A stretch of 64,000 bases of DNA from an uncultured Candidatus Saccharibacteria bacterium (lineage in GTDB: Bacteria > Patescibacteriota > Minisyncoccia > UBA6257 > UBA11618), in NCBI GenBank assembly GCA_964362125.1, contig CAYICS010000002.1, forward strand, positions 9,302-73,301, read 5' to 3'. This document shows positions 40,822 through 58,146 of this stretch, one piece after another. Every line of letters begins with the position of its first letter. The first letter of the stretch is position 1. The position numbers and the translations under genes were made by a program. The notes under the pieces were generated by a model. It was not told the DNA's origin, searched no databases, and saw only the letters and a program-made list of their open reading frames with translations.

Positions 40822-41823
40822 ATGGATGTAATCGCAGTATCTCTTTCCCTGACGGGTGTTTTGTTCATTGCCAGTCACAATATCGTTAAACGAATATCTC
40901 TTCGTGACGGTCAGTTAACTCCCAGCGAGTTTCTGGCTGTATCTCAAGGAATTGCTGTTCTTTTCCTGGCGGCGATGATTTTATGGGAAGGATTTGACGC
41001 GCCATCCCATTTTAATTCAAGAATTTTCTGGATGGCGGTTTTTATCACCGCCGTCATTAACATCTTGATTCAGTATGCCAATGCTCGGGCGGCCCAACTT
41101 GCCGAGGCCTCGCTGATTGCTCCCATTCAGGCGCTCACTCCGGGATTAGTTACCATCACTGCTTTGACTTTAGGAGAGCAACCTACCCTACAGGGAATTG
41201 CCGGAATTGGTTTGATCGCCTTGGGTACTTATATCCATGGCCGCGAGAACGCCACTACTCTGCGGGAGTATCTTTATCCTTTTGCCTTTCTCAGGCTTCC
41301 GGCTAATTTCAAAGAGTTGCCATTAATAGCCCAGCGACAGGCATTAAGTAACCGGACCGCGCTTCGTTTCGCTTATGGTTCGGCAGTGGCCGGCTCTGTG
41401 GCTTTGGTTTTTGACGGTTTGTTAGCTCGTAATGGCAATGTAGCCTTAGGTATGATGGTTAAGTGGCTGATCTTAACTCTATTTTTCGGCTCGGCGGCGA
41501 TAGCGGGGTTATTCCGGAATGACGTCTATTCTCAAAAAAGAAAAATCTTCGGAAAATGGCGCTTGCTTCTTGGAGCGGGAATTTTTTTGGGTCTTAATGA
41601 GGTGTTGATAGGAACAGCTTTTCGGGTGGCGCCCATAGCCTACATCGGCAGTCTCAAACGTCTAAGCATCATCTTTATTACTCTTCTCTCTTGGTGGATT
41701 TTAAGAGAGGCAAAGGCCAAGCGTCGCCTTTTCCCGGCTTTATTGGTAACAGGCGGCGCAATCCTCTTGGCAACAGACGGCAGTATGGCCCGCCTTGTGA
41801 ATTATCTTGATTTTGTGTTATAG
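40822..41823 (+). CDS. EamA/DMT-superfamily membrane transporter
   Basis: 333 aa, with about 10 TM helices arranged as two repeated halves. Confidence 0.5.
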   Translation: MDVIAVSLSLTGVLFIASHNIVKRISLRDGQLTPSEFLAVSQGIAVLFLAAMILWEGFDAPSHFNSRIFWMAVFITAVINILIQYANARAAQLAEASLIAPIQALTPGLVTITALTLGEQPTLQGIAGIGLIALGTYIHGRENATTLREYLYPFAFLRLPANFKELPLIAQRQALSNRTALRFAYGSAVAGSVALVFDGLLARNGNVALGMMVKWLILTLFFGSAAIAGLFRNDVYSQKRKIFGKWRLLLGAGIFLGLNEVLIGTAFRVAPIAYIGSLKRLSIIFITLLSWWILREAKAKRRLFPALLVTGGAILLATDGSMARLVNYLDFVL

Positions 41824-41875
41824 TAAGCCCAGCAGCTCTTCTTAATCTAAAACTCTCAGGAAAGGAGCAGTTTCT

Positions 41876-42325
41876 ATGTCTCAACAGACAGTGCGCCGTC
41901 AGTGTCAGGTGGTGGATAAAGAGAAAATACAAAGTATGTGCGATTGGCCCAACCAGACAGGGTGTTTGGTGGTAGAACCATCACAGGAGTTGTACAAACT
42001 TGGTTTCCCGGTAAGGGTGGTTCATGATTGTGATGCTATCCTTCCCATGGCCGAAGCGCATCCTCATCAAGATGATCTCTGGCTTTGTGTTTCTGGCAGG
42101 GCTTTATTTTGTATCGGCGGCAAGCTCGACGGCGAACGAAAAATGGGTGATGATGGCAAAACAGTGCTGGCCCCGGGTATTGTTGGCGGCCGAGACATTG
42201 TTTTGGAGCCCGGCCATTGGCTGCACATCCCGGCTGGGCAGCCCCATCGGCATGGCGCTCAAGGATTGGCCTGTCTTCTCATCATCAAGATTCCGCCGCC
42301 AGAGGGAGAAGTCTCTATTGAATAA
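41876..42325 (+). CDS. Cupin-domain protein
   Basis: Carries GHWLHIPAGQPHRH, a cupin motif. Confidence 0.5.
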   Translation: MSQQTVRRQCQVVDKEKIQSMCDWPNQTGCLVVEPSQELYKLGFPVRVVHDCDAILPMAEAHPHQDDLWLCVSGRALFCIGGKLDGERKMGDDGKTVLAPGIVGGRDIVLEPGHWLHIPAGQPHRHGAQGLACLLIIKIPPPEGEVSIE

Positions 42326-42385
42326 CTTGGGTGTAGAATCCAAACGGAGGCGTATCAGCCGCTGATACGCCTTCTTTATTAAAAT

Positions 42386-43186
42386 ATGAAAACATTGGAG
42401 AAATACTTAAAAAGAAAAAAAATAATTATTAGAAATCGGTTAATTACTGTGAATTATTTTTATCGTCCTGGCAGCGCAGGATTAATTATTTTTATCCCCG
42501 GATTAGGATGCTTAAAAGAAGAATACAGTGGGGCATTCCAATCAGGATTATTGAAGCGATTCGCTTTATTGGTTTTTGATTGGCCGCAGGAACAGCTTAA
42601 TCTAAGAGATATTGCTTATATTACTCATCAAATTGCCGGGGGTTATGCCAAGAAATATATAATTGTTAGTCATAGCGCCGGAGGCGCCGCGGGATTACTT
42701 TGTATTAAAGAAAAACCGCAAAATGTGGTTGGCTTCGTAAATATTGAAGGCAGTTTAATTGCCGATAATGCCAGATGGTCCCGTAAAATAGTGAAGATGG
42801 GGATTAAATCGCTTCGTGAAAAAAACTTCGGTTCGCTGGTGCGATCTTTACAAACTTCAAAAAACCCCGGTTTCCGGAATTACGGCAAAGAGCTCGCAGG
42901 TATTTCAATAAAATCTTATTTTAGTTACAGCCGTTCTCATGCTCGTTATGTTCAGGGAGAGCGATTGCTTAATCAATATATTAAACTTAATATACCTAAA
43001 ATTTTTATCTATGGCATTCAAAATAAAAGCTGGAAAAATACAATTAAGAAACTTAAAGAGGGGAAATGCGCCGTTGCCAATATTCCCAAAAGTCATCACT
43101 TTCCGCACATAGATAATCCCCGATATTTTTATAATTTTATATATAAGTTTGCCCGGAAAATTTTTATTTCTTCCACTGGTGTTTAA
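42386..43186 (+). CDS. Alpha/beta-hydrolase-fold protein
   Basis: Carries a VSHSAGGAAG nucleophile-elbow-like motif. The gene is 266 aa. Confidence 0.45.
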   Translation: MKTLEKYLKRKKIIIRNRLITVNYFYRPGSAGLIIFIPGLGCLKEEYSGAFQSGLLKRFALLVFDWPQEQLNLRDIAYITHQIAGGYAKKYIIVSHSAGGAAGLLCIKEKPQNVVGFVNIEGSLIADNARWSRKIVKMGIKSLREKNFGSLVRSLQTSKNPGFRNYGKELAGISIKSYFSYSRSHARYVQGERLLNQYIKLNIPKIFIYGIQNKSWKNTIKKLKEGKCAVANIPKSHHFPHIDNPRYFYNFIYKFARKIFISSTGV

Positions 43187-43212
43187 CGTTAAGATGCTGT
43201 TGGGATTTTACT

Positions 43213-43250
43213 AAACTAACTCGACGATCGTCAAGTTAGTTTAGTGGATA
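43213..43250. promoter_or_regulatory. 17-bp inverted repeat (actaaactaactcgacg / cgtcaagttagtttagt), an operator-like or terminator hairpin
   Basis: Near-perfect palindrome with 1 mismatch, centred on gatcg. It lies downstream of the hydrolase gene and upstream of a TTGACT...TATATC promoter-like region. Confidence 0.35.
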
Positions 43251-43382
43251 AAAAATTCATCAAATCACAAAGTTACAATATTGACTTTTATCACTTTTTA
43301 AAATATTATCGTTATATCGTTATCAAGATTAGCTATGGGCTAGTCCTTGATGTTCTTTGGTAAACTTTTAGGAGAACCAGTA

Positions 43383-44477
43383 ATGTCCATGAATGCCGGC
43401 GAGAAACAGCATGCTCACGACCCACAGGGGACACTTTTTGAAGGTCTGTTTCCAGTAATGTATGCAATGGAGGGCTTGGTTAAAGGCGGCTATCTGCGTC
43501 AATCGAGGTACACTGCTTTACTGGCAGATACCCACAGCGGCGGCTTGATAGGGAAAAACGTTCTTGACCTTGGCTGTGGATATGGCACAACCACTTTTGC
43601 AGCGGCCGGGTTTTATCCGGCGTCGATTACTGCCACAGACCGTTCTCAAGCAATGATTGAGATGATGCGGCTGGTATTGTTAAGCTCCGGAAGTATCGAG
43701 GACTGGTTATTAGCGCTTGGCGCTGATCAGCTATTAAAAGAGAAACTAAGTGATTTAACCAAATTCTTGGGACAGATGCGTCAGTGTTTCCATTTAAGCA
43801 GTTTTTGGAAACATCATCATCCGCTCGAGATACTCAATTATGGACTCTTTGAGTTCCCCACCCCAACAGATCTTTTTGATGTGGTAGTAGCTAATAATGT
43901 TCTGCATTGGCCCATCAATCAACTTAAGGCCGATTTAGAGAAAACCGGTCAGCAGACAACAGTTGATCGTTGTACTGCCGAGGTCTTGAATCAAGCGCGG
44001 CGTTTGATAAAACCAAAGGGTATTTTGGTGATAATGGAACCCAAGGCCCTGACTGTCTTTGATACTCACCCGCTTCTGGAAGCGAGTTTTTCGGAGTTGA
44101 ACGACGGTAATCACCCGGTTTTTATCAAACTCAATAACTTAATCAACCAGATTCTCCAGCGAGATTATAACATTACCCGGAATACACCTAGAAATCCGGA
44201 TATGTTTAGAGTTAGTCAGATGGATGGATTAGCTGTTGACGCCGGATTTAGGTTGATTAAGACGACGGCAGTGGAAGAACTCACAATGATGCCGGCGATT
44301 GAATTTTTCCCTATCAATGTGCCGATCAACTTAGGCGCCATCAACCTACCTCTTCTGGAAAAAATGAAAGTAGTCCAAGAGGCAACGGTTGGGCTGGAAC
44401 CCCTACTGTCGGAAGAAGAAAGGACGATGCCGATGCGGGGGCAATCGTTTTATTTTACTTTCCAGGCAGTTGATTAA
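43383..44477 (+). CDS. Class I SAM-dependent methyltransferase. The ORF track starts it at 43347; the RBS supports 43383.
   Basis: AGGAG lies 7 nt before ATG 43383. Motif I reads VLDLGCGYGTTT, and NNVLHW follows. Confidence 0.6.
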   Translation: MSMNAGEKQHAHDPQGTLFEGLFPVMYAMEGLVKGGYLRQSRYTALLADTHSGGLIGKNVLDLGCGYGTTTFAAAGFYPASITATDRSQAMIEMMRLVLLSSGSIEDWLLALGADQLLKEKLSDLTKFLGQMRQCFHLSSFWKHHHPLEILNYGLFEFPTPTDLFDVVVANNVLHWPINQLKADLEKTGQQTTVDRCTAEVLNQARRLIKPKGILVIMEPKALTVFDTHPLLEASFSELNDGNHPVFIKLNNLINQILQRDYNITRNTPRNPDMFRVSQMDGLAVDAGFRLIKTTAVEELTMMPAIEFFPINVPINLGAINLPLLEKMKVVQEATVGLEPLLSEEERTMPMRGQSFYFTFQAVD

Positions 44478-44506
44478 AACGGCTGGCTTTAAAACCAGTC
44501 CTCAGA

Positions 44507-44536
44507 AACCCGCTTCGAAGGAGGCGGGGTTTTTTA
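44507..44536 (+). terminator. Rho-independent terminator
   Basis: aacccgc-ttcgaaggag-gcggggtt followed by tttttat. Confidence 0.6.
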
Positions 44537-44580
44537 TAATAGACAAAAATCAGATAAGCGTGCTAATCTAATGATTAATA

Positions 44581-45084
44581 ATGATTTCAAAAAAATTAAG
44601 CTTAAAATTAAAGAAAATTAAATTACTAGCCCTTGATTTTGACGGCGTTTTTACCGATGGCAAGGTTTATCTTAATCAAGACGGCATTGAGACTGTGGTT
44701 TGCAGTCGTCGTGACAGTTTGGGCTTGAATCGATTAAAGAAATTAGGCATTAAATTGGCGGTGATCTCCATGGAGCCCAATCCGATTGTGGCTAAAAGAT
44801 GTGAAAAACTTAAAATTGAAATGCTTTATAGTCCTGAAGGAAAAGGCGAGTTGCTTAAGCAATTGGTAAATAGAGAAAAGCTTTCACCTAACGAAGTTGG
44901 TTATATGGGAGACGATCTTAATGATCTTGATTGTTTAAAGTACGCGGGGGCGGCTTTCACTGTGGCTGATGGAGCTTTTCCTTGCTTAAAAACAGCTGAT
45001 TATGTTACCAAAAGAAAATCAGGAGATCATGCCCTTCGTGAAGTATGCGATCTGATTTTAAGAGCTTATGGACAAGAAACATAA
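44581..45084 (+). CDS. KdsC-family (HAD-IIIA) sugar-acid phosphate phosphatase
   Basis: Carries LALDFDGVFTDG, RRDSLG and MGDDLNDL. The first ~45 nt of the coding sequence are near-identical to the 5' end of the 39637 gene. Confidence 0.75.
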   Translation: MISKKLSLKLKKIKLLALDFDGVFTDGKVYLNQDGIETVVCSRRDSLGLNRLKKLGIKLAVISMEPNPIVAKRCEKLKIEMLYSPEGKGELLKQLVNREKLSPNEVGYMGDDLNDLDCLKYAGAAFTVADGAFPCLKTADYVTKRKSGDHALREVCDLILRAYGQET

Positions 45085-45892
45085 AATTGGAAGAAAAACC
45101 GCCTTATTAACCGGAGCATCTGGTTTTTTCGGCAGACAATTCACTGAGGCCTTATTAAACACCGGATTAAAAGTGATCGCTATTGATCAAAATAAAAATG
45201 GACTGGAGTCGATGAGAAAAGAATTAAACGGGAGATTTGGTCATAAACTTTTCACTTATCAAGTTGATCTTTATAATCGTAATCAAACCAAAGAATTATA
45301 CAGAAAAATTATCAAAGAGCATAAAAAGATTGATATTTTAGTCAATAACGCTTTTGATTTTAGCAGTAAAACCGGTTTTAACACGCCAGAAGGCAAGATT
45401 GAAAAAGCCACCCACGATCAATTTTTAGCTTGTTTTGAAGCTGGTGTTTATTGGGCTTTTGAAACCACTCAAGTTTTTGGTTTAGCTATGAAAGGCAATG
45501 GCGGCGGCTTAATTGTCAATATCGGAACAATGTACGCCCAATTTGTGCCTAACCCGTCTCTTTATGAAGGAACGCCGCAATTTAATCCATGGGGTTACAG
45601 CGCCAGCAAGGGAGCTTTATTGCAGTTCACCCGCTATGCGGCGGCTTGGTTGGCTCCGGAAGTACGGGTAAATATGATTTCCCCCGGCGTTTTTCCTCAT
45701 CCGCCGAAAGGAACCAAGAATCCGCCCAGTTCGGCGGTGTTAGATCGCCTGCAAAAAAAAATTCTTTTGCGGCGGGTGGGCAAACCGGAAGATTTAGTCG
45801 GGGCGCTGTTGTTTCTGATTTCTGATGCTTCCAGTTATATCACTGGCCAAAATTTTTGTATTGACGGCGGGATTACCGTGACTGTGACTTAA
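45068..45892 (+). CDS. Short-chain dehydrogenase/reductase, paralogue 1
   Basis: Carries TGASGFFG, NNAF, YSASKGAL and DGGITVTV. Confidence 0.75.
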   Translation: MDKKHKIGRKTALLTGASGFFGRQFTEALLNTGLKVIAIDQNKNGLESMRKELNGRFGHKLFTYQVDLYNRNQTKELYRKIIKEHKKIDILVNNAFDFSSKTGFNTPEGKIEKATHDQFLACFEAGVYWAFETTQVFGLAMKGNGGGLIVNIGTMYAQFVPNPSLYEGTPQFNPWGYSASKGALLQFTRYAAAWLAPEVRVNMISPGVFPHPPKGTKNPPSSAVLDRLQKKILLRRVGKPEDLVGALLFLISDASSYITGQNFCIDGGITVTVT

Positions 45893-45973
45893 CCGAGACT
45901 TAAATAAAATCAACCCCACCTTATGAGATGGGGTTGTGGTTGTGATGGGTTTCATAGTCCCTGCAAACCAGCC

Positions 45974-46633
45974 CTATTGAGGCGGCAGGGTTAAGGGATT
46001 AATCCCCCAGGCTGTCAGGATGAAATTGGCAAAATCGCGGAAGGCGCCGTTGCCGCCGGAACGTTGCGAGACAAAGTCAACGATGCTTCTGATGGCAATA
46101 TCGGCGTTGGCTGGGGCGGCTCTTAAAAGCACCTTTCGTAGAATTTCCACATCTACTAAATCGTCGCCCATATAGGCGCAATCACTAAAAGTCAGGCCAA
46201 CTTCTTTAAGCCACTCCTCGGCTTTGGCAACTTTGCCGCCGCCGTAACTGCCTTCGTAAAGCCGGACAAGCTCCCAGCCGCCATCACCCGGGGCCTTGGA
46301 AGTAGAAGATAATTTGTTCCACTTCTCAACCACATCCCTGATATGCCGGCTGGCCTCGTTTTTTTCAGAGGTGATCAGGCAAACACGGACACCGATGGCT
46401 CGGAGTAAAGAGACGCCTTGGCCATCGTAGTAACTGCGCCTTTTGGATGGACTAAGTGGATCAACGGTATTATCAGTAAAGACCCCATCCACGTCCGAGA
46501 TGACAGCCCGAATGATTCCGGCTTTATTCCAGACCGCCTCAGAAGATTCGCCTGTCACCATATCTATGAAATGGTCTCTCGGTATGATCATTTTATTCTC
46601 CTTATTCTCCTCTTCAACAGTTTCGTTTGTCAA
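45974..46633 (-). CDS. KdsC-family phosphatase with an N-terminal extension
   Basis: Carries VISDVDGVFTD, YDGQG, MGDDLVD and GGNGAFRDF. Confidence 0.7.
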   Translation of the reverse strand: MTNETVEEENKENKMIIPRDHFIDMVTGESSEAVWNKAGIIRAVISDVDGVFTDNTVDPLSPSKRRSYYDGQGVSLLRAIGVRVCLITSEKNEASRHIRDVVEKWNKLSSTSKAPGDGGWELVRLYEGSYGGGKVAKAEEWLKEVGLTFSDCAYMGDDLVDVEILRKVLLRAAPANADIAIRSIVDFVSQRSGGNGAFRDFANFILTAWGINPLTLPPQ

Positions 46634-46717
46634 AGTGCGCCGAAGAACATCTTCGGCAATAGCCGGGATATTATCATAAAAAATCCCCCGGTGTCAAGGA
46701 CACCGAGGGGGGGTTGG

Positions 46718-48472
46718 TTAGCCGGTCAGATCAAGAATCTCGAGAGTCCGGCCGCTGTCAACCAGTTCCCGAGCCCGCAGGAAAACATCCATTGGCATGT
46801 CGCTGTAGTTGAGCGGGTCACCGGTCTTGGGATTATGCAAGAGTTTGGTGGCGTCGTCTAACTCCAGAACATACTGCTCGAAATTCTCATCGCAGATCGG
46901 CTGGTCGAACTGATCAAACTGGATGCCAAACACTTCCCAAAGCATCTGGCGAACCTTGGGATGGTTGCCCATGCTTGTTCCCGGATACCAGGTGGCAGTG
47001 AACATCCGTTTGTTGACTGTCTCCGGCCCCTTACCGCATTGGGCATAGAACTGCTCTTGCCAGCGCATAAAGGCCACACTCTGCTTGAGGTTAGCCAAGG
47101 TCTCGGTGGGGTAGGCCATGATCCAGGTGCAGTTGGCATGGATTCCGGCATACTCACAGTTCTCTGTGCCCTCCACCATACTGCGGGGGAACTCCATTTC
47201 CCGGCCATCAACTTTGACAGTTACCATCCCGTTACTCAGGATAAAACCGCCTTTGTGCATGGCCTCCAGGACTGGCGGTGAAGCGCTCTCGGCTCCAAAG
47301 CCGATGTAGACACAGCCAGCTTTAGCCATTGAATCAATGCGCTTGGGATCTTCCACTAGCCCTGTTTTGGGATGGCGGCCGGCGGCCTCATCCATCCGGG
47401 TATGAGTCCCCCAACGCATCTTCAGGGGCGCCAGCCACGGCTCTATATCCTGAACAATCCGTTTCTGGGTAACGGCGAAGTTGTCATCAGGCATGCCGAT
47501 GAAATCCACCCCATACTTATCGATATGGGACAGGAAAATCCTCGCCAATCTTTTACCAGAAAACACACCATAAGTACGTTCGCCTTGCGCTCCCCTAAAG
47601 CAGAAATCGCAGGCATGGGGACAACCGCGGCTGGAAACAAAAGTAGTACTGCGGCTCATGGCGAAGGAAGTGGCCGAGCTGTTATTGGCAGAAACTCCCC
47701 AGTTGGCATTGCCGATGTAACACTCCAACAGTCGGTTGCCGTTGACATCTTCCCGCAGTAGTTCCAGATCGGCAATGGCTAGACTATCCAGATCTTTGGG
47801 TCGGCCGCCATCATAAAGAAAGCGGTGCCGGCCATTGATGAAGCCGCGGTAGTAGGGTTGGACTTCGCCCCAATTGACAGCGCTTGTCCGGCCTCGATCT
47901 CTAATTGCCTTGGCATCATAGGCAATTTTGAGAATCACCTCGTCGCCTTCAGAATGAGCCACGCCATCCAGTTCAGGAATGTAGTTGAACAAACCTAAGC
48001 GCAGTTCAGTAGCCAAGCCATTGCCGCTGACCAGAAACACATCCGGCAAAAGCCGCCGGATGAGCTTGGCTACTGCTTTCTGCCACGGGAGAGTGGTGAT
48101 GATGCCGGAAAAGGCGACTAGATTCGGTTCGCCGTGAAAAAGAATGTGTTTTTTAATCAACTCCTCGGCTTCAGCCAGTGTCAGATGCCGGCCATTAGGC
48201 AGGCCGCGCTCCTGAGCCAGCTGGTCTTTGATCCGGTAGGCATTAAGGTCAATAATACTGGCCTCAACGCCGTAGTTGTCCCGGAGATTGGTGGCCAGCA
48301 TCAATGGCCCTTCCGGCGTGGTGTTGGGCACCGCGCTCTCCCGTAAAGGCATATTGATGAAAACCACCCGCAGACCAGCCAAATCTCTGTGGCTGATAGA
48401 ACTAACCACCGGGCCCGGGTCAACATACTGTCCCAGCTCCAAGCTGGTTACCGGCAACAGAACTGTGCTCAT
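46718..48472 (-). CDS. B12-binding-domain radical SAM protein (class-B-like)
   Basis: A CPHACDFC (Cx3Cx2C) cluster lies after an N-terminal Rossmann/B12-binding-like domain (VVFINMP...LVAFSG). The gene is 584 aa and relatively GC-rich. Confidence 0.6.
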   Translation of the reverse strand: MSTVLLPVTSLELGQYVDPGPVVSSISHRDLAGLRVVFINMPLRESAVPNTTPEGPLMLATNLRDNYGVEASIIDLNAYRIKDQLAQERGLPNGRHLTLAEAEELIKKHILFHGEPNLVAFSGIITTLPWQKAVAKLIRRLLPDVFLVSGNGLATELRLGLFNYIPELDGVAHSEGDEVILKIAYDAKAIRDRGRTSAVNWGEVQPYYRGFINGRHRFLYDGGRPKDLDSLAIADLELLREDVNGNRLLECYIGNANWGVSANNSSATSFAMSRSTTFVSSRGCPHACDFCFRGAQGERTYGVFSGKRLARIFLSHIDKYGVDFIGMPDDNFAVTQKRIVQDIEPWLAPLKMRWGTHTRMDEAAGRHPKTGLVEDPKRIDSMAKAGCVYIGFGAESASPPVLEAMHKGGFILSNGMVTVKVDGREMEFPRSMVEGTENCEYAGIHANCTWIMAYPTETLANLKQSVAFMRWQEQFYAQCGKGPETVNKRMFTATWYPGTSMGNHPKVRQMLWEVFGIQFDQFDQPICDENFEQYVLELDDATKLLHNPKTGDPLNYSDMPMDVFLRARELVDSGRTLEILDLTG

Positions 48473-48617
48473 CTTGCTATCCTCCAGTTTTGATTGATTA
48501 GATTGTAAAGGTGCTTTCTATTAATAATATACCACTTGCTAAAAAAATTGCTATATGCTAGTTTAGATAGTCTTTTGGCACCTCGGCAACCTGATAACCG
48601 AAAGAAGGGATAGAACG

Positions 48618-49448
48618 ATGACTGGATTGTTTTCTTTGACAGGCAAACTGGCAGTGCTGACTGGGGCGGCTGGCTTCTTTGGCCGGCCTTTTACCAAAGC
48701 CCTGCTTGAGGCCGACGCCACTGTCTTACTGCTTGACCGAAAAAGCGGCCAGCTCAACCAGTTGATTGAAGAACTGGTTCCGGGCTACGGCCGGGCACGA
48801 GCTATTTCTTATGCAGCTGATCTTTATCAGCCCCAAGAACGTGATCAGGTCTTTAAGCGGGTTTTGGAGGAGTGGGGCCCTCCTGACATTCTCATCAATA
48901 ACGCTTTTGACTTCACTGGCAGGACCGGTTTCAACATTGAAGCCGGCCGGCCGGAAAATACCACCTATGAACAACTGGAGGCCTGCTTCCAGTCAGCTTT
49001 CTACTGGGCCTTCTTCGCTACCCAAGCTCTGGGACCGAAGATGAAAGAACGCGGCCGCGGCTCGATCATCAACATCGGCACGATGTATGCTGACAGCGTC
49101 CCTAACATCAACAAGCTATATGCCGGCACCAATCAGTTCAATCCGCCCGGCTATAGCGCTGGCAAGGGCGCCTTACTGCAATTCACCAAGTACAGCGCTG
49201 CTTGGTTGGCGCCAAAGGTCCGAGTGAATATGATCTCTCCCGGCGCCTTTCCCCATCCGCCTGAAGGAACGCCCAACCCCGCCACTGAACTGGTATTGAG
49301 TCGGCTGCAGCAGAAGATTCTGCTGGAGCGAATGGGTAAGCCGGAGGATCTGATCGGCACCCTGATCTTTCTCGCTTCTGACGTTTCCAGCTACATCACC
49401 GGCGAGAACATTGGAGTCGATGGCGGCATCACAGTCACAGTCACGTAA
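48618..49448 (+). CDS. Short-chain dehydrogenase/reductase, paralogue 2
   Basis: About 60% identical to the 45068-45892 product, with the same TGAAGFFG, YSAGKGAL and DGGITVTVT blocks. Confidence 0.75.
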   Translation: MTGLFSLTGKLAVLTGAAGFFGRPFTKALLEADATVLLLDRKSGQLNQLIEELVPGYGRARAISYAADLYQPQERDQVFKRVLEEWGPPDILINNAFDFTGRTGFNIEAGRPENTTYEQLEACFQSAFYWAFFATQALGPKMKERGRGSIINIGTMYADSVPNINKLYAGTNQFNPPGYSAGKGALLQFTKYSAAWLAPKVRVNMISPGAFPHPPEGTPNPATELVLSRLQQKILLERMGKPEDLIGTLIFLASDVSSYITGENIGVDGGITVTVT

Positions 49449-49482
49449 TTAATCGGAGAAAAACGATCCACAATGGGGGCGG

Positions 49483-50541
49483 TTGACACCGCTCCTTTTT
49501 TTGTTCATATTAAAAGCTATTATGCCGCGGCGCTTTTTCCCCCAAAAATTTTTATCCCGCTTGGTCAGGTTTATTAAGAATCAGCCGCCTCTTGCCACAA
49601 AGGATGTTTTTATTGGCGGCCTGCCTGTTGGCCGGGGCCGCCCCTGCTTTTTTGCGGCAGAAATCGGGATTAACCACAATGGCAGTTTGGAAATTGCCAA
49701 GAAGCTTATTGATGCCGCCGCCTTTGCCGGCGCCCAAGCTGTTAAATTTCAAAAACGGACCGTTGCTAAAGTTTACTCTCCTGAAGAACTGGCCAAGCCG
49801 CGGGTTGTGGATAGGGCGGTTTTGGAAAATGCCGTTAAGCGCGGCGTCCTTTCCCGGGAAGCGGTTGAGCGGCTTCAACGCTCTGACTTTAAAGACAGCA
49901 CCAATGGCGATCTAAAATGGGCTTTGGAATTCACTGAATCTGAATATCGGGAATTATTTGCTTACGCTAAAGAGAGGGGCCTGCTTTGTTTTGCTTCGCC
50001 GTGGGATTTAGACAGTATTGATTTTTTGGAAAAACTTAATCCGCCCTGCCATAAGGTTGCTTCAGCTATGATTACTAATCATTCTCTTTTACGGAAAATC
50101 AGGACTACTGGCCGGCCCATCGTTCTTTCCACTGGTATGAGCACAATGGATGAAATAAAAGCGGCTATTAATATCGCTGGTCTGGATAATCTGATTATTC
50201 TTCATACTGTTTCCACTTATCCTTCAAAAGAAGAAGAGCTTAATTTGCAGTTAATTACCCATTTGCGCGGGCTTTTCCCAACTGTGCCTATTGGCTACAG
50301 CGGCCATGAAAAAACTCTTGCGCCATCATTAATGGCAGTCAGCTTAGGGGCGCACTTGATTGAACGTCATTTGACACTGGACAAAACAATGTTCGGCACT
50401 GATCAGTCGGCTAGCTTGGAGCCGCAGGAATTTGCCCAACTTATTCACGATGTGCGGCTGATAGAACAGGCGGCCGGCGGCCGGGTGAAGCAAGTGATGT
50501 CTTCAGAGGTGCCGATTAGAGAAAAACTACGGAAAGTTTAA
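49483..50541 (+). CDS. NeuB/PseI/LegI-family nonulosonate (or nonulosonate-9-phosphate) synthase
   Basis: Carries PCFFAAEIGINHNGSLEIAKKLIDAAAFAGAQAVKFQKR, the NeuB signature. The C-terminus looks short for a full SAF domain. The start could be 49483 or the ATG at 49522. Confidence 0.7.
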   Translation: MTPLLFLFILKAIMPRRFFPQKFLSRLVRFIKNQPPLATKDVFIGGLPVGRGRPCFFAAEIGINHNGSLEIAKKLIDAAAFAGAQAVKFQKRTVAKVYSPEELAKPRVVDRAVLENAVKRGVLSREAVERLQRSDFKDSTNGDLKWALEFTESEYRELFAYAKERGLLCFASPWDLDSIDFLEKLNPPCHKVASAMITNHSLLRKIRTTGRPIVLSTGMSTMDEIKAAINIAGLDNLIILHTVSTYPSKEEELNLQLITHLRGLFPTVPIGYSGHEKTLAPSLMAVSLGAHLIERHLTLDKTMFGTDQSASLEPQEFAQLIHDVRLIEQAAGGRVKQVMSSEVPIREKLRKV

Positions 50542-51941: not shown

Positions 51942-52934
51942 TTGGGGAGGGAGCTTCCCAACCGCCTATTTTTGTTGTATAATTTTGTAACCATGAAAAT
52001 TCTTCACTGGAAAATCAACCCGGTTTTACAAAAAACAACAGAAGCTGACTATCGAAATCAACTGGCGGCAAAACTACAAGACCACGACGCCCTGACAATT
52101 CTTCGAGATCTAAGTTTAGACGGAGTGGCGCCGAATATAACTTTTCAGGATTTGGAAAATCTGATTAAGTTTACTGAAAAAAAATTCCTGGAGAGAAAAT
52201 TATCCGGAGTGGGCTTGGAATTGGGTTCGGGGCCGGCGCCTTTTAGTGCTGTTTTAGCCAAACGACCCGAGATACAAAAGATGTATGCGGTCGAGCTTTG
52301 CCGGCCGATTGTGGAGATTCTTCTGCCGAAAATGGCTGAGGCGGCGGCCGGCCCGGCGGCTGGCAAAATTGTTGGCTGTGTCGGAGAATTTGATAATTTG
52401 GAACTGCCGGATAATTATCTTGATTTTATGATTGATTTTTTTTCTTTGCATCACTCCCCTGACCCGATTAAAACTTTGAAAGAATGCCGGCGCGTCTTAA
52501 AATCAGGCGGGGTTATTATTTGTTTTGACAAAGCCCGGCCCGATGACCTGACAACCGCTGATCTTGATCGTCTGCTGGATAAAGAATACGAAGATGATTT
52601 TAAAAAGCGAATGGGCATTCCCTTAACCCAAAAACTCACCCGCCGCCAGAACGGCGAACACGAATACCGTTTGAAGGATTGGCAAAATTATTTTAATCAG
52701 TCTGGTTTCTCCGAATTTTATCATTTTCGCCTTGACCAGTGCCGCAGTGGACTTTTTCCAATAAAGATGATAAAATATATACTGTCAATTTTACCCGTAA
52801 AAATGGAGACAATGATCACCCAATTTTTACCTCAATCACTAGATCAATATCAGCTGGCTTGGGATAATCGCCTTTTCACGCCGATCATTAACAATTTCCG
52901 CAAGGAGATGTCATTGATGATTGCTTCCCAGTAA
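51942..52934 (+). CDS. Class I SAM-dependent methyltransferase. The start may be the ATG at 51993.
   Basis: Motif I reads GLELGSGPAPFS, followed by VIICFDKARPDD. Confidence 0.55.
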   Translation: MGRELPNRLFLLYNFVTMKILHWKINPVLQKTTEADYRNQLAAKLQDHDALTILRDLSLDGVAPNITFQDLENLIKFTEKKFLERKLSGVGLELGSGPAPFSAVLAKRPEIQKMYAVELCRPIVEILLPKMAEAAAGPAAGKIVGCVGEFDNLELPDNYLDFMIDFFSLHHSPDPIKTLKECRRVLKSGGVIICFDKARPDDLTTADLDRLLDKEYEDDFKKRMGIPLTQKLTRRQNGEHEYRLKDWQNYFNQSGFSEFYHFRLDQCRSGLFPIKMIKYILSILPVKMETMITQFLPQSLDQYQLAWDNRLFTPIINNFRKEMSLMIASQ

Positions 52935-54215
52935 ACGGCTTTTCTCAATTTCCCAAATAAAAATATTAATAATAATATTAATAATCCGGCTTATTATGTA
53001 AGCGGTCACCATGCCAGCGATGCCCATAGTCAGACCTAAAGTTATATAAAGGATCAGTCTTACGATAGTTCCAAGAATGGTGGATGTATAAATTCCTCTA
53101 ATAAGTTTTTGTGAGAAAAAGACCGCCCCGATAAAGCCGGCGCTCAAACCCAAAGCCATATCAATGGCCAGCATCCGGGAATAGATAACCGCATCGGGAT
53201 ATTTGGGAAAGATTATTTGAAAAAGAGTAGAAGCAATCAGGGCGTAGACTATGCCAACCGCCGCTCCGATTATAAATGTCTGAAATAATCTTCTATAAAA
53301 TATCCTGCTTACTTCCGCTGAATTTTTTTCTGAAAGTTTAGGAAGAAAAGTGCCTGACAGCGACTTTAAAAAAGTATAGATGTTGTTAGGGAATGTTTGG
53401 GCAATGGCGTACAAGGCCAAGGTTTCCGGCCCCTTCATTCCGAAAAGAATAATACTGTCTAATTGTCTGGCGATAACATTAAAAATTTCTACAATAGTGA
53501 GGTGCCGGGCATAATTTTTAAATCCTTCATCGCTGACGGAGGTTAAAGGTTTTGATTGGTATTTTTTCTTTGTTGCCAGATAGAAAAGAAAACTTTGGAT
53601 TGCTTCCACAAAAGCAAATACCGCTATCAAAAAAATAACATTGTTGAAAATTAGTAAAGCAGCCACCGTTAAAATGGCGGTAGTCAATTCCTCCACCGAG
53701 ACATAGATAGCCGATTGTTTAAAATCCTTCTTGCCGGCAAGATAAGAACGATAGAGCCGAAAGGCGGTTATTAAAGGAGTGAATATGCCTAAAATTAATA
53801 AGGAGATGCCGATAACTAGCGAGTCCTTCATCAAGTAGTAAGAAGCAACGATAAAACAAGCCAAAACGTAGATAAACCCCCATCTTATTTGGTAAGCAAC
53901 TCCTTTATCAAGAGCGTTGTTATCGCTTTTAGCCACCGCTTGCACAATGGCTGTGCCTAAACCGCGAATGGTAAAAATCATCAATGTCCCGATTAATGAG
54001 AAAATAAATTTATAGGTGCCGTAGTCAGCCTTATCAAAAATGTTGGCCAGAGCAATTCCGGAAATAAGAGAGGCGGCCATCGCCGAAACATTTTCCAGCC
54101 CTATCCAGAAGCCGCCTTTAACAAAATAACGAACATCTGTCCGCGTCTTTTTTTCCAAAAATAAAAGTGTCTTTTTTAACATTGACGGGTTTTTATTATT
54201 GTGTAATAATAACAC
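52911..54215 (-). CDS. Wzx-like polysaccharide flippase (MOP superfamily, Polysacc_synt)
   Basis: 434 aa with about 12 TM helices. The N-terminus VKGGFWIGLENVSAMAASLISGIALANIF is typical of Wzx. Confidence 0.65.
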   Translation of the reverse strand: MLLLHNNKNPSMLKKTLLFLEKKTRTDVRYFVKGGFWIGLENVSAMAASLISGIALANIFDKADYGTYKFIFSLIGTLMIFTIRGLGTAIVQAVAKSDNNALDKGVAYQIRWGFIYVLACFIVASYYLMKDSLVIGISLLILGIFTPLITAFRLYRSYLAGKKDFKQSAIYVSVEELTTAILTVAALLIFNNVIFLIAVFAFVEAIQSFLFYLATKKKYQSKPLTSVSDEGFKNYARHLTIVEIFNVIARQLDSIILFGMKGPETLALYAIAQTFPNNIYTFLKSLSGTFLPKLSEKNSAEVSRIFYRRLFQTFIIGAAVGIVYALIASTLFQIIFPKYPDAVIYSRMLAIDMALGLSAGFIGAVFFSQKLIRGIYTSTILGTIVRLILYITLGLTMGIAGMVTAYIISRIINIIINIFIWEIEKSRLLGSNHQ

Positions 54216-54235
54216 ATTAATAAACTACTGCCAAT

Positions 54236-55273
54236 ATGAGGAAAATAAATGAAAGATGTTTTAAAGTTAGGGCATTTTTGAGGAAACTAAAACTAAGAAC
54301 GATTACTCTTGATGAAAGCATCCCTCTAAATCATCAGGAAGACTGTCCTGCCTGCGGCTCCCGGCTTATTTTACTCTGTTCGCTTTTTAACTCTGATAAT
54401 TCTCTGAAATTAAGGATTGGCTTTTGTGATGGCTGCGGTTACAGCGGCTATCAAGACCGGCCCGCCGAACAATGGCTGGAAAAATTTTATGCCTCAAAAT
54501 GGGATAGGGCCCGCCAGCCATTTTTAAATCTGTCCCAAAGCCATTTTCGGGCTTTGGAGTTAATAGAAAAACTGGCCGTTAATAAAAATCGGGGCGTTTT
54601 GGAAATTGGCTGCGGCTACGGCGCCGCTCTTGATTATTTTAAGAAACAAAATTTTAGCAGAGTGGTCGGCTTTGAGCCGTCGCTCCATCGGGCCGAAGCG
54701 GCCATCGAACACTTTGGCGCCGTTATTATTAATGACTTAAACCAAGCCAGCCGGCCCTTTGGTTTAATTTTTAGTCATCATGTTATTGAACATGTTTATA
54801 ATCCTAATCAATTTATCAAAACAGCCGCTTCGCTTCAGGAAGATGGCGACTTTTTAATTTTATCCCTGCCCAATGTCGTTGGCGAACATAGCGGTTATAA
54901 CATCTTTTACCTCCCCCATCTCCATGCTTTTTCTAAACAAGCTGTGGAAGCTCTTTTAAATAAAAACGGCTATGAGATTTTAATTGATCATTCGCCCAGC
55001 GATCTTAATACTATTATCGGGGCGGTTAAAAGAAAAAATCCAAAAAGTATTTTCCGGAAAGACACTGAATACCAAAAATTTTATATTGAGAAATTTCAGA
55101 AAGAGCTGGCTTTAAACCGGTTAATCGGGGGCTTTTATTTATGGCGTTGGGATCCGCGGGACAAAAAGGGCGGCGGCGCCTATATTTTTATAGTAAAATC
55201 GCTTAAAAGAAGATTTTCTGATTCTCCTTTTGAAATTCAATTCACCGGGGAAATTAAATTGCTGGTAAAATAA
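54236..55273 (+). CDS. Zn-ribbon plus class I SAM-dependent methyltransferase
   Basis: Two Cys pairs form the ribbon: CPACGS and CDGCGY. Motif I reads VLEIGCGYGAA. Confidence 0.6.
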   Translation: MRKINERCFKVRAFLRKLKLRTITLDESIPLNHQEDCPACGSRLILLCSLFNSDNSLKLRIGFCDGCGYSGYQDRPAEQWLEKFYASKWDRARQPFLNLSQSHFRALELIEKLAVNKNRGVLEIGCGYGAALDYFKKQNFSRVVGFEPSLHRAEAAIEHFGAVIINDLNQASRPFGLIFSHHVIEHVYNPNQFIKTAASLQEDGDFLILSLPNVVGEHSGYNIFYLPHLHAFSKQAVEALLNKNGYEILIDHSPSDLNTIIGAVKRKNPKSIFRKDTEYQKFYIEKFQKELALNRLIGGFYLWRWDPRDKKGGGAYIFIVKSLKRRFSDSPFEIQFTGEIKLLVK

Positions 55274-55277: not shown

Positions 55278-56837
55278 ATGCTGGAGTTTTTTGATGAAAA
55301 AGCTATTGGAGAATTAAAAAATAAAAAGCAGACGGCGCCGTCAGGTTTTCATTATGGTTTTACTGAAAATATTTTTAAAGAAGATGTTTATCAGAAATTA
55401 ACTAACACTTTTCCTGATATCAAGAGCTTTAAGCTGGTTGATAAAATGTCCGGCGGCGGCCACAAACGTTTTTATGTCGGGCCGGATTACTATAGCGGCA
55501 AGGACTGGGGCTGTATTTGTCATATGAAAAACCTGCCGGAAATCTGGCAGAAAGTTCTTTTAGAATCAGCCGCGCCGGAATTTATTGAAATGTTGAGTAC
55601 AGCCACCGGCATAAAATTTAATTCTCTTTGCAACTTTGGTTTTGCCTATGGCAATGAGGGTTGTGTTCAGGAGCCGCATATTGATGGCGCCGCCCGGCCG
55701 GATGACCCATCGCCAGTCCATTCAACCATCGCCTGCCTGCTTTATCTAAACCAAAAGCCCGACGGTTTTACCGGCACTTGTATCTATGCTCCAGACCGGA
55801 AAACAATTATCTTCCAAGTGCCCAATCTGCGTAACTCTATGTCATTTTTTAAACAACACCCTTCTGCCTGGCATGGTTTTCCTCAAGTGCCAAAAGGCGA
55901 AAGTCGACGAATAATCAGTTTATCTTACAGTCAGGAAGCCGCCCCAATTGCCTTAAAAACATTTAAAGAACATAATCCTTTGCCTTATCTTGGTGACCGC
56001 CGGATACTTCAATGCGGCAGCTGCGGCATTGTTTTTTTATCACCCGAAATATCTATGAAAGATTCGGAGAGTTATTACCGTGAAGGCGATTATTGGCGGG
56101 ATAAATTAAACGATCCTCTGCAAAGAGAAATGTTGAGTCGTAACGCCCGGGCGATGCTTTCTTTAATTACCTTACATAAAAAACCTGATAAATCTGTTAA
56201 GTTACTGGACATCGGCTCTCACGAAGGAACTTTTGTGGAAGAAGCCCTTAAATTTGGTTATCAAGCCCAAGGCATTGAGCCTAATAAGAGAATCGCCGCC
56301 GAGGCCCGGGCCAGAGGCCTGCCCATTACTGAAGGCGCTATTGAAAGTTTAGCCGGTGAAGAAAAATTTGATATTATCACCCTCTTTCACGTTCTGGAAC
56401 ATCTGCCCGATCCCCAATTGGCTCTTGAAAAAATAAAAAATCACTTGAAGACAGACGGGATTTTAGCGCTGGAGATTCCCAATATCGAAAGTTATTTGGC
56501 TAAGCGCCACGGACTTTCCTGGAAATTTATTGCTCTGGAACATCTTTGGTATTTTTCGCCGCTGACCTTAAAGCATCTTTTAAAAGAAGCGGGATTTGAA
56601 ATAACTTTTTCCTTAAAAAGAAACGGTGAAATTCCTTACTTGAGCTTGGGGGATATCCGGCAGTATTTCCGGCCTAATCCCAATTATTATAAAGACCGCT
56701 TTAAGATGAAAGTTTCTGCTCCGGCCGCCGGGCTGTTAAAAATAAGATTTAAATTATTAAAAAGATTTTTAGCTGCTATTATTTATATCTTAGGCCGGGC
56801 TGATCATTTTTTTGTAATCGCTAAAAAAATATTGTGA
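55278..56837 (+). CDS. Fusion of a 2OG-Fe(II)-oxygenase-like domain (N-terminal) and a Zn-ribbon class I SAM methyltransferase (C-terminal)
   Basis: The N-terminal ~230 aa read EPHIDGA (HxD) and SAWHGF (distal His). The C-terminal part reads CGSCG, LLDIGSHEGTF and LFHVLEHLPDP. Confidence 0.55.
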   Translation: MLEFFDEKAIGELKNKKQTAPSGFHYGFTENIFKEDVYQKLTNTFPDIKSFKLVDKMSGGGHKRFYVGPDYYSGKDWGCICHMKNLPEIWQKVLLESAAPEFIEMLSTATGIKFNSLCNFGFAYGNEGCVQEPHIDGAARPDDPSPVHSTIACLLYLNQKPDGFTGTCIYAPDRKTIIFQVPNLRNSMSFFKQHPSAWHGFPQVPKGESRRIISLSYSQEAAPIALKTFKEHNPLPYLGDRRILQCGSCGIVFLSPEISMKDSESYYREGDYWRDKLNDPLQREMLSRNARAMLSLITLHKKPDKSVKLLDIGSHEGTFVEEALKFGYQAQGIEPNKRIAAEARARGLPITEGAIESLAGEEKFDIITLFHVLEHLPDPQLALEKIKNHLKTDGILALEIPNIESYLAKRHGLSWKFIALEHLWYFSPLTLKHLLKEAGFEITFSLKRNGEIPYLSLGDIRQYFRPNPNYYKDRFKMKVSAPAAGLLKIRFKLLKRFLAAIIYILGRADHFFVIAKKIL

Positions 56838-56877
56838 TTATACTCAAAAGTTGCACGTGCAACTTTTGAGTATAATC
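56836..56877. terminator. Perfect 42-bp palindrome between convergent genes, a bidirectional terminator
   Basis: gattatactcaaaagttgcac | gtgcaacttttgagtataatc. The arms are 21 nt and match perfectly. Confidence 0.6.
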
Positions 56878-56892: not shown

Positions 56893-58146
56893 TTAATTTT
56901 TCTCAACTACAGCAATAGAACCGTAGCCGAAATTTCTAATAATTGGTTTGGCTTTGAATTGATCCAGCCATTTAATCAGCGTCAGGAACCGATTAAAGTA
57001 GGGCAGGCAAAGCGACGAGGCCTCAAAATGAATAATCTTAAAGCCGGCCTGTCTCAGTTGACTGCGCATTACCCAGGGATAACGCCAAAGATGAGGCAAA
57101 ACCGGGTTGCCGCTGTAGGCCTCGTCAACCCCGGCGCCCCCCAAATTCAGAATAATCCTCACCAAACCGACGAACCAGGCAAAAAGCGACCAGCGGGAAA
57201 CAGCCCAAAAATTATCTCCGCCCAAAATCACGGCGGCGCAAGGATTAAAGCAGGTAGGCATAGCAATGATGGCCCTTTTTCTGGTTACGCGGTGAATTTC
57301 TTTTAATCCTTTCCTGAAATCAGGCAGGTGTTCCAAAACATGCGAACTAACCACCAGATCAAAAGAATTATCCGGGAAAGGCAGGTTCTCGGCGTCAGCT
57401 GTCAGAAATTCTATTTTTCCAGCCAATCCTTCTTTCTCCGCGTATTCCCGGGCGCGCGCGATATTAGGCGCAGAGATGTCGCAGGTGGTTAATTTTATTC
57501 CCTTGCCAGCCAACATTATAGCCAGAGCGCCGTCACCACAACCATTATCCAACACTGTTTCTTCCGGGTTAATGAAAAAAATTATTGATTCAAACTCTGT
57601 TTGATGGGCATAGTGGCGAAGCGGAAATTTTTGAGAAAGCCGGCCTTCTTTTACCGATTCTTCTTTAGTTTGATAAATAATTTTAATTTTTTCTGAAGCC
57701 ACAACTAATTCTTCTTTTTTAAAAACCGCCAGCATCAAAAAAAAGAAGGTGGCCAAAATCAAAAGATAAGAAAGGGCCTGTGATAAACCAGCGCCGTTTA
57801 ACAAAGAAATTATACCTAAAGTCGGCTGATACCAGATGGTGACAAAGATAATCAATAAACTGCCGGCGCCGACAAAAAATAATTGTCTAAAGCGTGAGAA
57901 AAAAACATTCTCAATGCGGCTGACGGTCTTTTTTAATCCTCTATATTTAATCTGGTAATAAACTTCAATAAGAATGATGGCCAAAAGATAATAAATAATA
58001 CTCCGGCCGGGGAGGCCGGCTTGGCTTAAAGATCGTTCGCTTAGCCAGTCAATAATCAGGATGGTAACAATTAAACCGACGTTCCACTTAAAACTGGCGT
58101 TATTTATTTCCAAAAGCAGCCGCTCCATTTTATTGGTAAACAGCAA
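56893..58146 (-). CDS. Membrane-anchored SAM methyltransferase, with N-terminal TM helices and a C-terminal Methyltransf_11 domain
   Basis: Four to five TM helices precede VLDNGCGDGALA and LVVSSHVLEHLPD. Confidence 0.6.
   Translation of the reverse strand: MLFTNKMERLLLEINNASFKWNVGLIVTILIIDWLSERSLSQAGLPGRSIIYYLLAIILIEVYYQIKYRGLKKTVSRIENVFFSRFRQLFFVGAGSLLIIFVTIWYQPTLGIISLLNGAGLSQALSYLLILATFFFLMLAVFKKEELVVASEKIKIIYQTKEESVKEGRLSQKFPLRHYAHQTEFESIIFFINPEETVLDNGCGDGALAIMLAGKGIKLTTCDISAPNIARAREYAEKEGLAGKIEFLTADAENLPFPDNSFDLVVSSHVLEHLPDFRKGLKEIHRVTRKRAIIAMPTCFNPCAAVILGGDNFWAVSRWSLFAWFVGLVRIILNLGGAGVDEAYSGNPVLPHLWRYPWVMRSQLRQAGFKIIHFEASSLCLPYFNRFLTLIKWLDQFKAKPIIRNFGYGSIAVVEKN

Follow-up and report, generated by a model that had tools for sequence, protein, structure and literature searches.

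The DNA analysed here (the window) is a 64-kb stretch from a groundwater bacterium of the Patescibacteria type, and holds a cluster of genes for surface sugars. Within it, an uninterrupted open reading frame (ORF) of 519 amino acids (aa) was listed at exactly 55278..56837 of the forward strand, and the protein that it encodes (P0001) is predicted to join an iron(II)/2-oxoglutarate (Fe(II)/2OG) oxygenase, through a linker, to a class I S-adenosylmethionine (SAM) methyltransferase (Table 1). Comparison with related DNA indicates that this fusion arose by a 52-nucleotide (nt) deletion that joined two overlapping genes. The same protein sequence is present on three independently assembled contigs, and a second full-length copy (P0002), 76% identical to the window protein, was recovered from an unrelated sequencing run. 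Proteins, related loci and alignments are referred to below by P, L and A numbers, respectively.

Residues 1-232 are, as judged from a family alignment and a structural model, a Fe(II)/2OG oxygenase with a complete predicted active site. In an alignment of 46 stand-alone homologues (A1), the predicted iron ligands (H134-x-D136 and H199) and the predicted 2OG-binding arginine (R210, 11 residues after H199) are invariant, as are G59-G61, K63, Q131 and W198. An earlier note on this DNA had read a facial-triad pattern from the sequence, and the motifs that it singled out hold these residues: EPHIDGA contains H134 and D136, and AWHGF contains H199. A family profile searched against the PDB matched PolD (9blq) by sequence alone with an E-value (E) of 1e-6 and with the ligand residues aligned; H134, D136 and H199 correspond to the THVDG and WH of the iron- and succinate-bound PolD, and R210 to its arginine. 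The AlphaFold (AF2) model of the domain, built on the family alignment, had a predicted local distance difference test score (pLDDT) of 95.7 and a predicted template modelling score (pTM) of 0.92, and was folded as a double-stranded beta-helix (jelly-roll). The best Foldseek match of this model in the PDB was again PolD (with iron and succinate; E 2.7e-12), followed by PasI (9ei6/9ei7; E about 1e-11, to 1.5e-11) and then by OGFOD1, Tpa1, PHD2 and bacterial prolyl 4-hydroxylase (P4H). All 50 matches listed, of 243 with E <= 0.001, were Fe/2OG oxygenases or a putative oxygenase, with a probability of 1.00 each. A non-oxygenase cupin without a metal triad, which the earlier note had named as the finding that would refute its reading, is not what was found, as the beta-helix carries the invariant HxD...H...R residues.

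The Pfam family PF13640 (2OG-FeII_Oxy_3) scored 23.7 bits with the full protein and 25.6 bits with the domain alone, which does not reach the gathering score of 27, so that the oxygenase call is based on family alignment and fold. The same model was matched at E<0.1 by 45 of the 46 family members, and its gathering score was passed by two further relatives, P0163 (29.4 bits) and P0166 (30.3 bits). With the window score below the threshold and these two above it, the family lies at the edge of the PF13640 model. A motif of the form SGGG[HR]K[RK]FY (SGGGHKRFY in the window protein) is specific to the subfamily of NeuB-type loci; P0163, P0166 and PolD do not have it. The motif may form a loop that binds a phosphate or carboxylate of the substrate.

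Residues ~276-519 are, by profile, alignment and model, a class I SAM methyltransferase, in agreement with the assignment of the C-terminal half in the earlier note. Pfam Methyltransf_23 was matched over residues 291-442 with an E of 1.1e-25 and 90.7 bits, against a cut-off of 27. In an alignment with 14 relatives (A2), motif I (LLDIGSHEG, aa 309-317) has invariant glycines at G313 and G317, E334 after strand 2 is nearly invariant, and the HVLEH motif (aa 371-375) is conserved. The domain is modelled in the full-length protein as alternating beta and alpha elements with pLDDT mostly >90, and its Foldseek matches are SAM methyltransferases. The nearest solved relatives, by both sequence and fold, are structural-genomics methyltransferases of uncharacterised function (3cc8, 1vlm); the nucleoside diphosphate (NDP)-sugar C3-methyltransferases TcaB9, KijD1 and MtmC come next, with E from 1e-8 to 1e-5.

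The methyltransferase half had also been described as carrying a CxxC ribbon, and of this description one CxxC (C246/C249) stands and the zinc ribbon does not. The stand-alone relatives P0004-P0017 have an N-terminal CxxC and a second CxxC ~20 residues on, forming a four-cysteine knuckle pair, and the full two-knuckle arrangement (CPAC...CDGC) is also present in the gene directly upstream of the fusion. In the window protein, P0002 and P0003, the first CxxC is missing and the second is kept. Residues 232-275 had pLDDT <50 in the full-length model with no confidently folded ribbon, and Methyltransf_13 gave no Pfam match in the window fusion protein. An intact zinc ribbon was rejected on the grounds of the single CxxC and the low pLDDT, and, on alignment and model, the segment behaves as a flexible linker of ~45 residues derived from a decayed ribbon. 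The full-length AF2 model (pTM 0.59) has no fixed inter-domain interface and has no bearing on channelling. The ancestral architecture of the window methyltransferase family shares the knuckle pair before the Rossmann fold with TcaB9, KijD1 and MtmC, in which a Methyltransf_13 zinc domain precedes a class I methyltransferase. Unlike these enzymes, the window protein is without the first CxxC and the Methyltransf_14 sugar-binding domain, and has a different C-terminal extension of ~75 aa. A true member of the TcaB9/KijD1/MtmC type is encoded elsewhere in the window (34866..36050, reverse strand).

The earlier note had suggested looking for separate homologues arranged as neighbouring genes, and such an arrangement was found on contig L001. 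There, a 252-aa oxygenase (4259..5017) and a 292-aa methyltransferase (5001..5879) are encoded by separate genes that overlap by 17 nt, and the Wzx and membrane-methyltransferase neighbours of the window are retained. A DNA alignment of the two loci (A3) showed that the window is without 52 nt present in L001, where they encode the C-terminal tail of the oxygenase, its stop codon and the start of the methyltransferase. As 52 equals 1 modulo 3, the loss places the two frames in register. Stand-alone oxygenases end in a basic tail with the consensus LKxSxxHxxxCxxxxK, and this tail is deleted in the fusion (A1 columns ~235-260; L001 4940-5017). Because the lost tail is present in the stand-alone family, the change ran from the split to the fused form.

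P0002 shares the junction of the window protein, in a form shorter by two residues. Between the two fused copies, the non-synonymous and synonymous divergences (dN/dS) were 0.117/2.47 for the oxygenase half and 0.182/1.86 for the methyltransferase half, a ratio of about 0.05-0.10, and both halves are under purifying selection. The fusion is old, given that the synonymous divergence between the copies is saturated. Regarding the tail itself, its histidine and cysteine are conserved in roughly half of the oxygenase family, and the idea that they complement the half-ribbon of the methyltransferase was set aside in view of this limited conservation.

The architecture, which had been called uncommon from the sequence, was found to be rare. 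A word-indexed search covered 5.8 billion clusters, and among its matches only P0001 and P0002 were full-length. An exhaustive phmmer search of the N-terminal domain against 1.84 billion representatives returned just 27 proteins with E<=1e-3, eight of them below 1e-30, so the oxygenase family is small. Searching with residues 1-232 returned 60 stand-alone proteins of ~245-254 aa with 47-70% identity; nearly all are hypothetical or without a name, and the named ones come from metagenome-assembled genomes (MAGs) of Paceibacterota/Pacebacteria. A genome scan located the stand-alone oxygenase in 10 species-level genomes, all of them Patescibacteria-type MAGs, labelled Taylorbacteria, Zambryskibacteria, Kaiserbacteria, Paceibacterota or 'Saccharibacteria'. 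By sequence, this is a small, unnamed family within the prolyl-hydroxylase-like (PF13640) branch, recovered from Patescibacteria MAGs only.

One independent fusion was found among the 1.84 billion representatives: P0163, a metagenomic protein of 490 aa (L014 8001-9473 / L015 8001-9473). Its oxygenase is 41% identical with the triad intact, and is followed by a long basic linker and a C-terminal Methyltransf_11 domain; the GGG-K motif and the CxxC are both absent. It thus resembles the window protein in joining the same oxygenase family to a C-terminal class I methyltransferase within a surface-glycopolymer locus, and differs from it in that the methyltransferase is unrelated and the locus is TagF/teichoic-acid-like. 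That locus encodes several TagF-type glycerophosphotransferases, an ATP-binding cassette (ABC) exporter and further methyltransferases, as well as AMP-binding, carrier-protein (acylation) and phosphopantetheinyl-transferase genes. The methyltransferase half of P0163 matched the window ORFs at the level of the SAM motif only (E >= 0.004), and the best match in the related loci (6e-6 over about 47 residues) was likewise at that level. A correspondence with the window methyltransferase, or with the Methyltransf_11 protein found downstream of the oxygenase in L007, was rejected on this basis. The sequences therefore indicate at least two independent fusions of the oxygenase family to a class I methyltransferase.

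Table 1. Features of the fusion gene, its neighbours and the ulosonic-acid pathway genes in the window.
Feature	Position	Strand	Details	Evidence
Fusion gene	55278..56837	+	519 aa, ATG start, stop codon included	ORF list; identical protein on 3 contigs
Predicted Fe(II)/2OG oxygenase domain	55278..55973	+	aa 1-232	Family alignment, AF2 model, Foldseek, profile against PDB
Subfamily motif SGGGHKRFY	55449-55475	+	aa 58-66	Alignment A1
Predicted Fe ligands	55677-55679; 55683-55685; 55872-55874	+	H134; D136; H199	Alignment A1
Predicted 2OG-binding Arg	55905-55907	+	R210	Alignment A1
Deletion junction relative to split locus	about 55964/55965	+		DNA alignment A3
Predicted junction/linker with half zinc ribbon	55974..56102	+	aa 233-275	Alignment A2, model pLDDT, DNA alignment A3
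Single CxxC	56013-56015; 56022-56024	+	C246; C249	Alignment A2
Predicted class I SAM methyltransferase domain with family-specific C-terminal extension	56103..56834	+	aa 276-519	Pfam, alignment A2, model
Zn-ribbon (CPAC...CDGC) Methyltransf_23 gene	54236..55273	+	345 aa; co-oriented, 4 nt upstream of fusion start	Pfam
Wzx-type flippase (Polysacc_synt)	52911..54215	-	Divergent neighbour, same position in L001	Pfam, E 4e-21
Membrane-anchored Methyltransf_11 protein	56893..58146	-	417 aa; convergent neighbour of fusion gene	Pfam
Back-to-back promoter-like sites	54182..54234		Between divergent Wzx and methyltransferase/fusion unit	Consensus scan
19-bp perfect palindrome (GATTATACTCAAAAGTTGCACGTGCAACTTTTGAGTATAATC)	56836..56877		Between convergent stops of fusion and 417-aa membrane methyltransferase	Terminator scan
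Ulosonic-acid pathway genes	38319..50541		Homologues flank stand-alone oxygenase in L003, L005-L010, L012	Pfam, NCBIfam
PseF/KdsB-like cytidylyltransferase	38319-39044	-		Pfam/NCBIfam
KdsC-like phosphatases	39637-40749; 44581-45084; 45974-46633	+; +; -		Pfam/NCBIfam
Short-chain dehydrogenases/reductases (SDRs)	45068-45892; 48618-49448			Pfam/NCBIfam
B12-radical SAM enzyme	46718-48472	-		Pfam/NCBIfam
NeuB-like synthase	49483-50541			Pfam/NCBIfam
TagF-like (Glyphos_transf) transferase	27323..28786	+		Pfam PF04464, E 1.6e-8

The upstream zinc-ribbon methyltransferase gene and the fusion gene look like a two-gene operon, since opposite-strand genes bracket the pair, a palindrome lies at its 3' end, and the best promoter-like matches of the scan fall in the divergent gap between Wzx and the zinc-ribbon methyltransferase. 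The promoter-like sites match the consensus at 10 of 12 positions each and have a TG extension, and are pattern matches only. The palindrome is probably a bidirectional terminator at the 3' end of the fusion unit. Wzx and the zinc-ribbon methyltransferase gene diverge from called start codons that lie ~20 nt apart (window 54215-54236). As the promoter-like sites overlap coding ends, the GTG start of Wzx has probably been called too far upstream. The 417-aa membrane methyltransferase gene is syntenic with the fused-type methyltransferase in L001 and L002. In the sequence and the model of the fusion protein, for which no signal-peptide or topology prediction was run, no transmembrane segment was noticed; as the cofactors are also cytosolic, we infer a soluble, cytoplasmic protein.

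The glycan-locus setting proposed in the earlier note agrees with the Pfam and NCBIfam content of the window. The super-locus encodes family 4 (GT4) glycosyltransferases, NDP-sugar dehydratases/epimerases, DegT aminotransferases, a formyltransferase, Wzx and GtrA, together with a TylCIII-type C-methyltransferase, a TagF-like transferase, a PseF/KdsB-like cytidylyltransferase and two SDRs. Three haloacid dehalogenase (HAD)-type proteins resembling KdsC and the 9-phosphate phosphatase of Kdn (2-keto-3-deoxynononic acid), a B12-radical SAM enzyme, a NeuB-like synthase and at least six further methyltransferases are also present. Among the relatives, all eight loci with enough flank contained NeuB-like, KdsC-like, cytidylyltransferase, B12-radical SAM and/or SDR genes. 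A recurring core of a TagF-like gene (~470 aa), a zinc-ribbon methyltransferase (~395 aa) and the oxygenase, often with 4-nt overlaps, was observed (for example L005 4450-7747 and L009 4378-7738). TagF-like homologues stand directly upstream of the methyltransferase-oxygenase pair in L003, L005-L009 and L012; the window copy is 27 kb away. A class I methyltransferase lies directly beside the stand-alone oxygenase in 8 of the 10 loci; in L007, a Methyltransf_11 gene directly downstream takes the place of the upstream zinc-ribbon methyltransferase. The upstream zinc-ribbon methyltransferase and the fused methyltransferase are distant paralogues (26% identity, E 1e-6).

Several further features of the window were noted. 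The first KdsC-like gene (39637-40749) is fused to a SLOG/LOG-like (Lysine_decarbox) domain. The G+C content is 0.52-0.53 over 46000-50000, which covers the B12-radical SAM, 276-aa SDR and NeuB-like genes, compared with about 0.38-0.45 in the flanks, and may reflect a different codon usage or a foreign origin of the core ulosonic-acid genes. A 747-aa fusion of an NDP-sugar 4,6-dehydratase/epimerase with a DegT/DnrJ/EryC1 aminotransferase is encoded at 24026-26269 (forward strand). The ORFs at 50758-51906 (forward, 382 aa), 58130-59917 (reverse, 595 aa) and 60495-62132 (reverse, 545 aa) matched no Pfam family; the sequence of the 595-aa ORF suggests a polytopic membrane protein, and a homologue of it adjoins the fused-type methyltransferase in L002. 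An AP_endonuc_2 (xylose-isomerase-like TIM-barrel) gene is found near the SDR and NeuB-like genes in L006 (9748-10566), L009 (11349-12164) and L012 (12207-13046), and no such gene was seen in the part of the window that was annotated. No tRNA genes were found in the window.

The closest known relatives of the oxygenase domain are PolD, from the polyoxin pathway of Streptomyces cacaoi, and PasI of Photorhabdus asymbiotica. Both resemble it in length (~210-235 aa) and in the corresponding HxD...H...R residues, at about 20% identity and a template modelling score (TM-score) of 0.65-0.77. Unlike the window protein, they are stand-alone enzymes of antibiotic clusters in Actinobacteria and Gammaproteobacteria, have no methyltransferase fusion, and are without the GGG-K motif. 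Their substrate is a nucleoside 2'-phosphate, a high-carbon sugar acid derived from phosphoenolpyruvate (PEP). PasI has been crystallised with 2OG, or with succinate and 5-amino-6-hydroxy-octanosyl acid 2-phosphate, and PolD has been proposed to take part in cleaving the C6'-C7' bond of octosyl acid (PMC5365060).

For an oxygenase inside a NeuB/KdsC/CMP-transferase locus, the best functional analogue is KdoO of Burkholderia and Yersinia lipopolysaccharide (LPS), an Fe2+/2OG/O2-dependent 3-hydroxylase of 3-deoxy-D-manno-octulosonic acid (Kdo) that adds a hydroxyl group to the 3-deoxy carbon of an ulosonic acid while the glycan is being assembled (PMC8533242). KdoO differs from the window oxygenase in belonging to another sequence family and in acting on lipid-A-linked Kdo in Gram-negative bacteria. 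KdoO is not known to be coupled to a methylation step. In eukaryotic ALKBH8, an RNA recognition motif (RRM) is followed by an AlkB oxygenase and a methyltransferase, and the two activities act consecutively on one substrate, the wobble uridine of tRNA. The window protein resembles it in having a 2OG/Fe(II) oxygenase N-terminal to a class I SAM methyltransferase in one chain; ALKBH8 differs in its AlkB-type oxygenase, Trm9-like methyltransferase, tRNA substrate and unrelated origin. There were no AlkB-type enzymes among the 50 matches listed of the 243 for the oxygenase model. The O-antigen literature yielded nothing specific on oxygenase-methyltransferase fusions, and no paper linking nonulosonic acids with Patescibacteria was found.

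Taken together, we consider it probable, on balance, that the gene encodes a bifunctional cytoplasmic glycan-tailoring enzyme, in which a Fe(II)/2OG oxygenase and a methyltransferase joined by a linker, and brought together by the deletion, serve an ulosonic-sugar pathway by oxidation followed by methylation. The 52-nt deletion took away the tail and stop codon of the oxygenase gene and the start of the overlapping methyltransferase gene, and purifying selection has maintained the fusion since. In this scheme, the pathway would build a CMP-activated 3-deoxy-ulosonic sugar (of the Kdo, Kdn or nonulosonic type) for a heavily methylated surface glycan. The oxygenase may hydroxylate an unactivated carbon of this sugar or of its substituent, and the 3-deoxy CH2 would be the obvious candidate by analogy with KdoO. 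The neighbouring or the fused methyltransferase would then methylate the oxygenase product, and the fusion protein would act on the nucleotide-activated or lipid-linked sugar, before export by Wzx. The recurrent adjacency of oxygenase and methyltransferase genes, together with the two independent fusions, argues for a functional coupling between methylation and the oxidation carried out by this family. Hydroxylation followed by O-methylation would be the simplest chemistry for the fusion and is plausible by analogy. A bolder version, in which an undescribed oxidation of a CMP-ulosonic sugar (3-hydroxylation or a PolD-like remodelling) is obligatorily coupled to methylation in a dedicated module marked by the two fusions, appears doubtful.

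A number of observations weigh against the favoured reading. The closest characterised structures of the methyltransferase are sugar C-methyltransferases with weak similarity in the SAM-binding core only, and as the likeness to C3-methyltransferases is confined to that core, it does not tell which kind of atom is methylated. Kdo_hydroxy (PF11004) was unmatched at E<0.1 in the 46 family members, and membership of the KdoO family was rejected for this reason. PolD and PasI have been associated with the breaking of a C-C bond in an 8-carbon sugar acid and not with simple hydroxylation (PMC5365060). The P0163 locus has no NeuB within 8 kb, and this, with its teichoic-acid-like content, indicates that the substrates of the oxygenase family are not uniform. 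Finally, it is the upstream zinc-ribbon type of methyltransferase that stands directly upstream of the oxygenase in 7 of the 10 loci (L003, L004, L005, L008, L009, L011 and L012), often with a stop/start overlap. The fused type otherwise travels with the membrane methyltransferase and the 595-aa membrane protein, and L002, which is syntenic for the membrane methyltransferase module, carries it without any oxygenase.

As the conserved partner of the oxygenase is thus the upstream methyltransferase and not the fused one, the fused activities need not act on the same atom. Both domains could be active in the same pathway at different positions or steps, with the upstream enzyme methylating the hydroxyl group, if any, that the oxygenase makes, the fused enzyme carrying out an unrelated methylation, and the fusion serving co-expression only. 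We regard this as a possible but rather less likely explanation. A 52-nt deletion between overlapping genes is mechanistically trivial, and the model has no confident inter-domain interface, which would also suit such an arrangement. However, the 7-kb locus of L001 pairs the oxygenase with the fused-type methyltransferase only and has no homologue of the 345-aa upstream enzyme, the independent fusion in P0163 argues for a direct link between the oxygenase family and methyl transfer, and the fusion has been kept across saturated synonymous divergence. The adjacency and the two fusions fit either order of reaction, and it is conceivable, though unlikely, that the methyltransferase acts first and that the oxygenase then hydroxylates on or next to the new methyl group, as in ALKBH8, or removes it oxidatively. 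The oxygenase is N-terminal to the methyltransferase in ALKBH8 as well, and the locus is rich in methyltransferases, including a B12-radical SAM C-methylase-like enzyme. The oxygenase is nevertheless not AlkB-like, its nearest folds being PolD, PasI and the prolyl hydroxylases; demethylation by oxidation would be a wasteful step for a biosynthetic locus; and nothing bears on the order directly.

A similarly low probability is given to chemistry of the PolD/PasI kind, that is, C-C cleavage or another non-hydroxylating reaction on a high-carbon sugar acid, after which the methyltransferase would cap the new group. These two enzymes are the best matches in both sequence and structure, the PasI ligand and the role of PolD in octosyl acid cleavage (PMC5365060) point in this direction, and their substrates are PEP-derived high-carbon sugar acids, as are NeuB products. 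Set against this are the low identity and TM-score given above, the prolyl hydroxylases that follow close behind, and the absence of the subfamily motif from PolD. The P4H-like branch of the fold, with OGFOD1, Tpa1, PHD2 and bacterial P4H as strong Foldseek matches, could also suggest a prolyl- or lysyl-type hydroxylase joined to a protein methyltransferase and acting on a surface or ribosomal protein. This is very improbable, as all the loci examined are of glycan or teichoic-acid-type biosynthesis, the two best matches act on sugar nucleosides, and no candidate gene for a substrate protein is conserved beside the oxygenase. An artefactual fusion, made from two separate genes by a frameshift in sequencing or assembly, is scarcely credible. 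The closest relative of each half is a separate gene, but three contigs of different assemblies carry the identical 519-aa ORF, P0002 shows the junction again in an unrelated run, the window departs from the split locus by a clean deletion of 52 nt and not by a 1-nt indel, and both halves are under purifying selection; an artefact was therefore rejected.

The fusion is a rare, selectively maintained and probable sugar-tailoring enzyme of ordinary chemistry, which belongs to an uncharacterised oxygenase family, is built from known enzyme classes, and is useful as a pointer to coupled oxidation and methylation of an ulosonic-acid glycan. As the chemistries of 2OG oxygenases and SAM methyltransferases are textbook knowledge, its value lies in pathway discovery and not in a new mechanism. 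It defines a small, unnamed family of O2-dependent oxygenases that is tightly linked to methyltransferases, and the split, fused and independently fused forms are a 'Rosetta-stone' case that predicts coupling of oxidation and methylation in the pathway. As a single polypeptide, the fusion is also a compact target for biochemical reconstitution. An enzyme requiring O2 and 2OG is a small physiological clue in organisms that are usually held to be fermentative. The cell-surface glycans of Patescibacteria (the candidate phyla radiation, CPR) are essentially uncharacterised, although surface contact with hosts is vital to these bacteria, and the present locus shows that they devote over 60 kb to an ulosonic-acid glycan that is heavily methylated. 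If the coupled, undescribed oxidation were true, these ultra-small bacteria would carry on their surface ulosonic acids of a new class, both methylated and oxidised.

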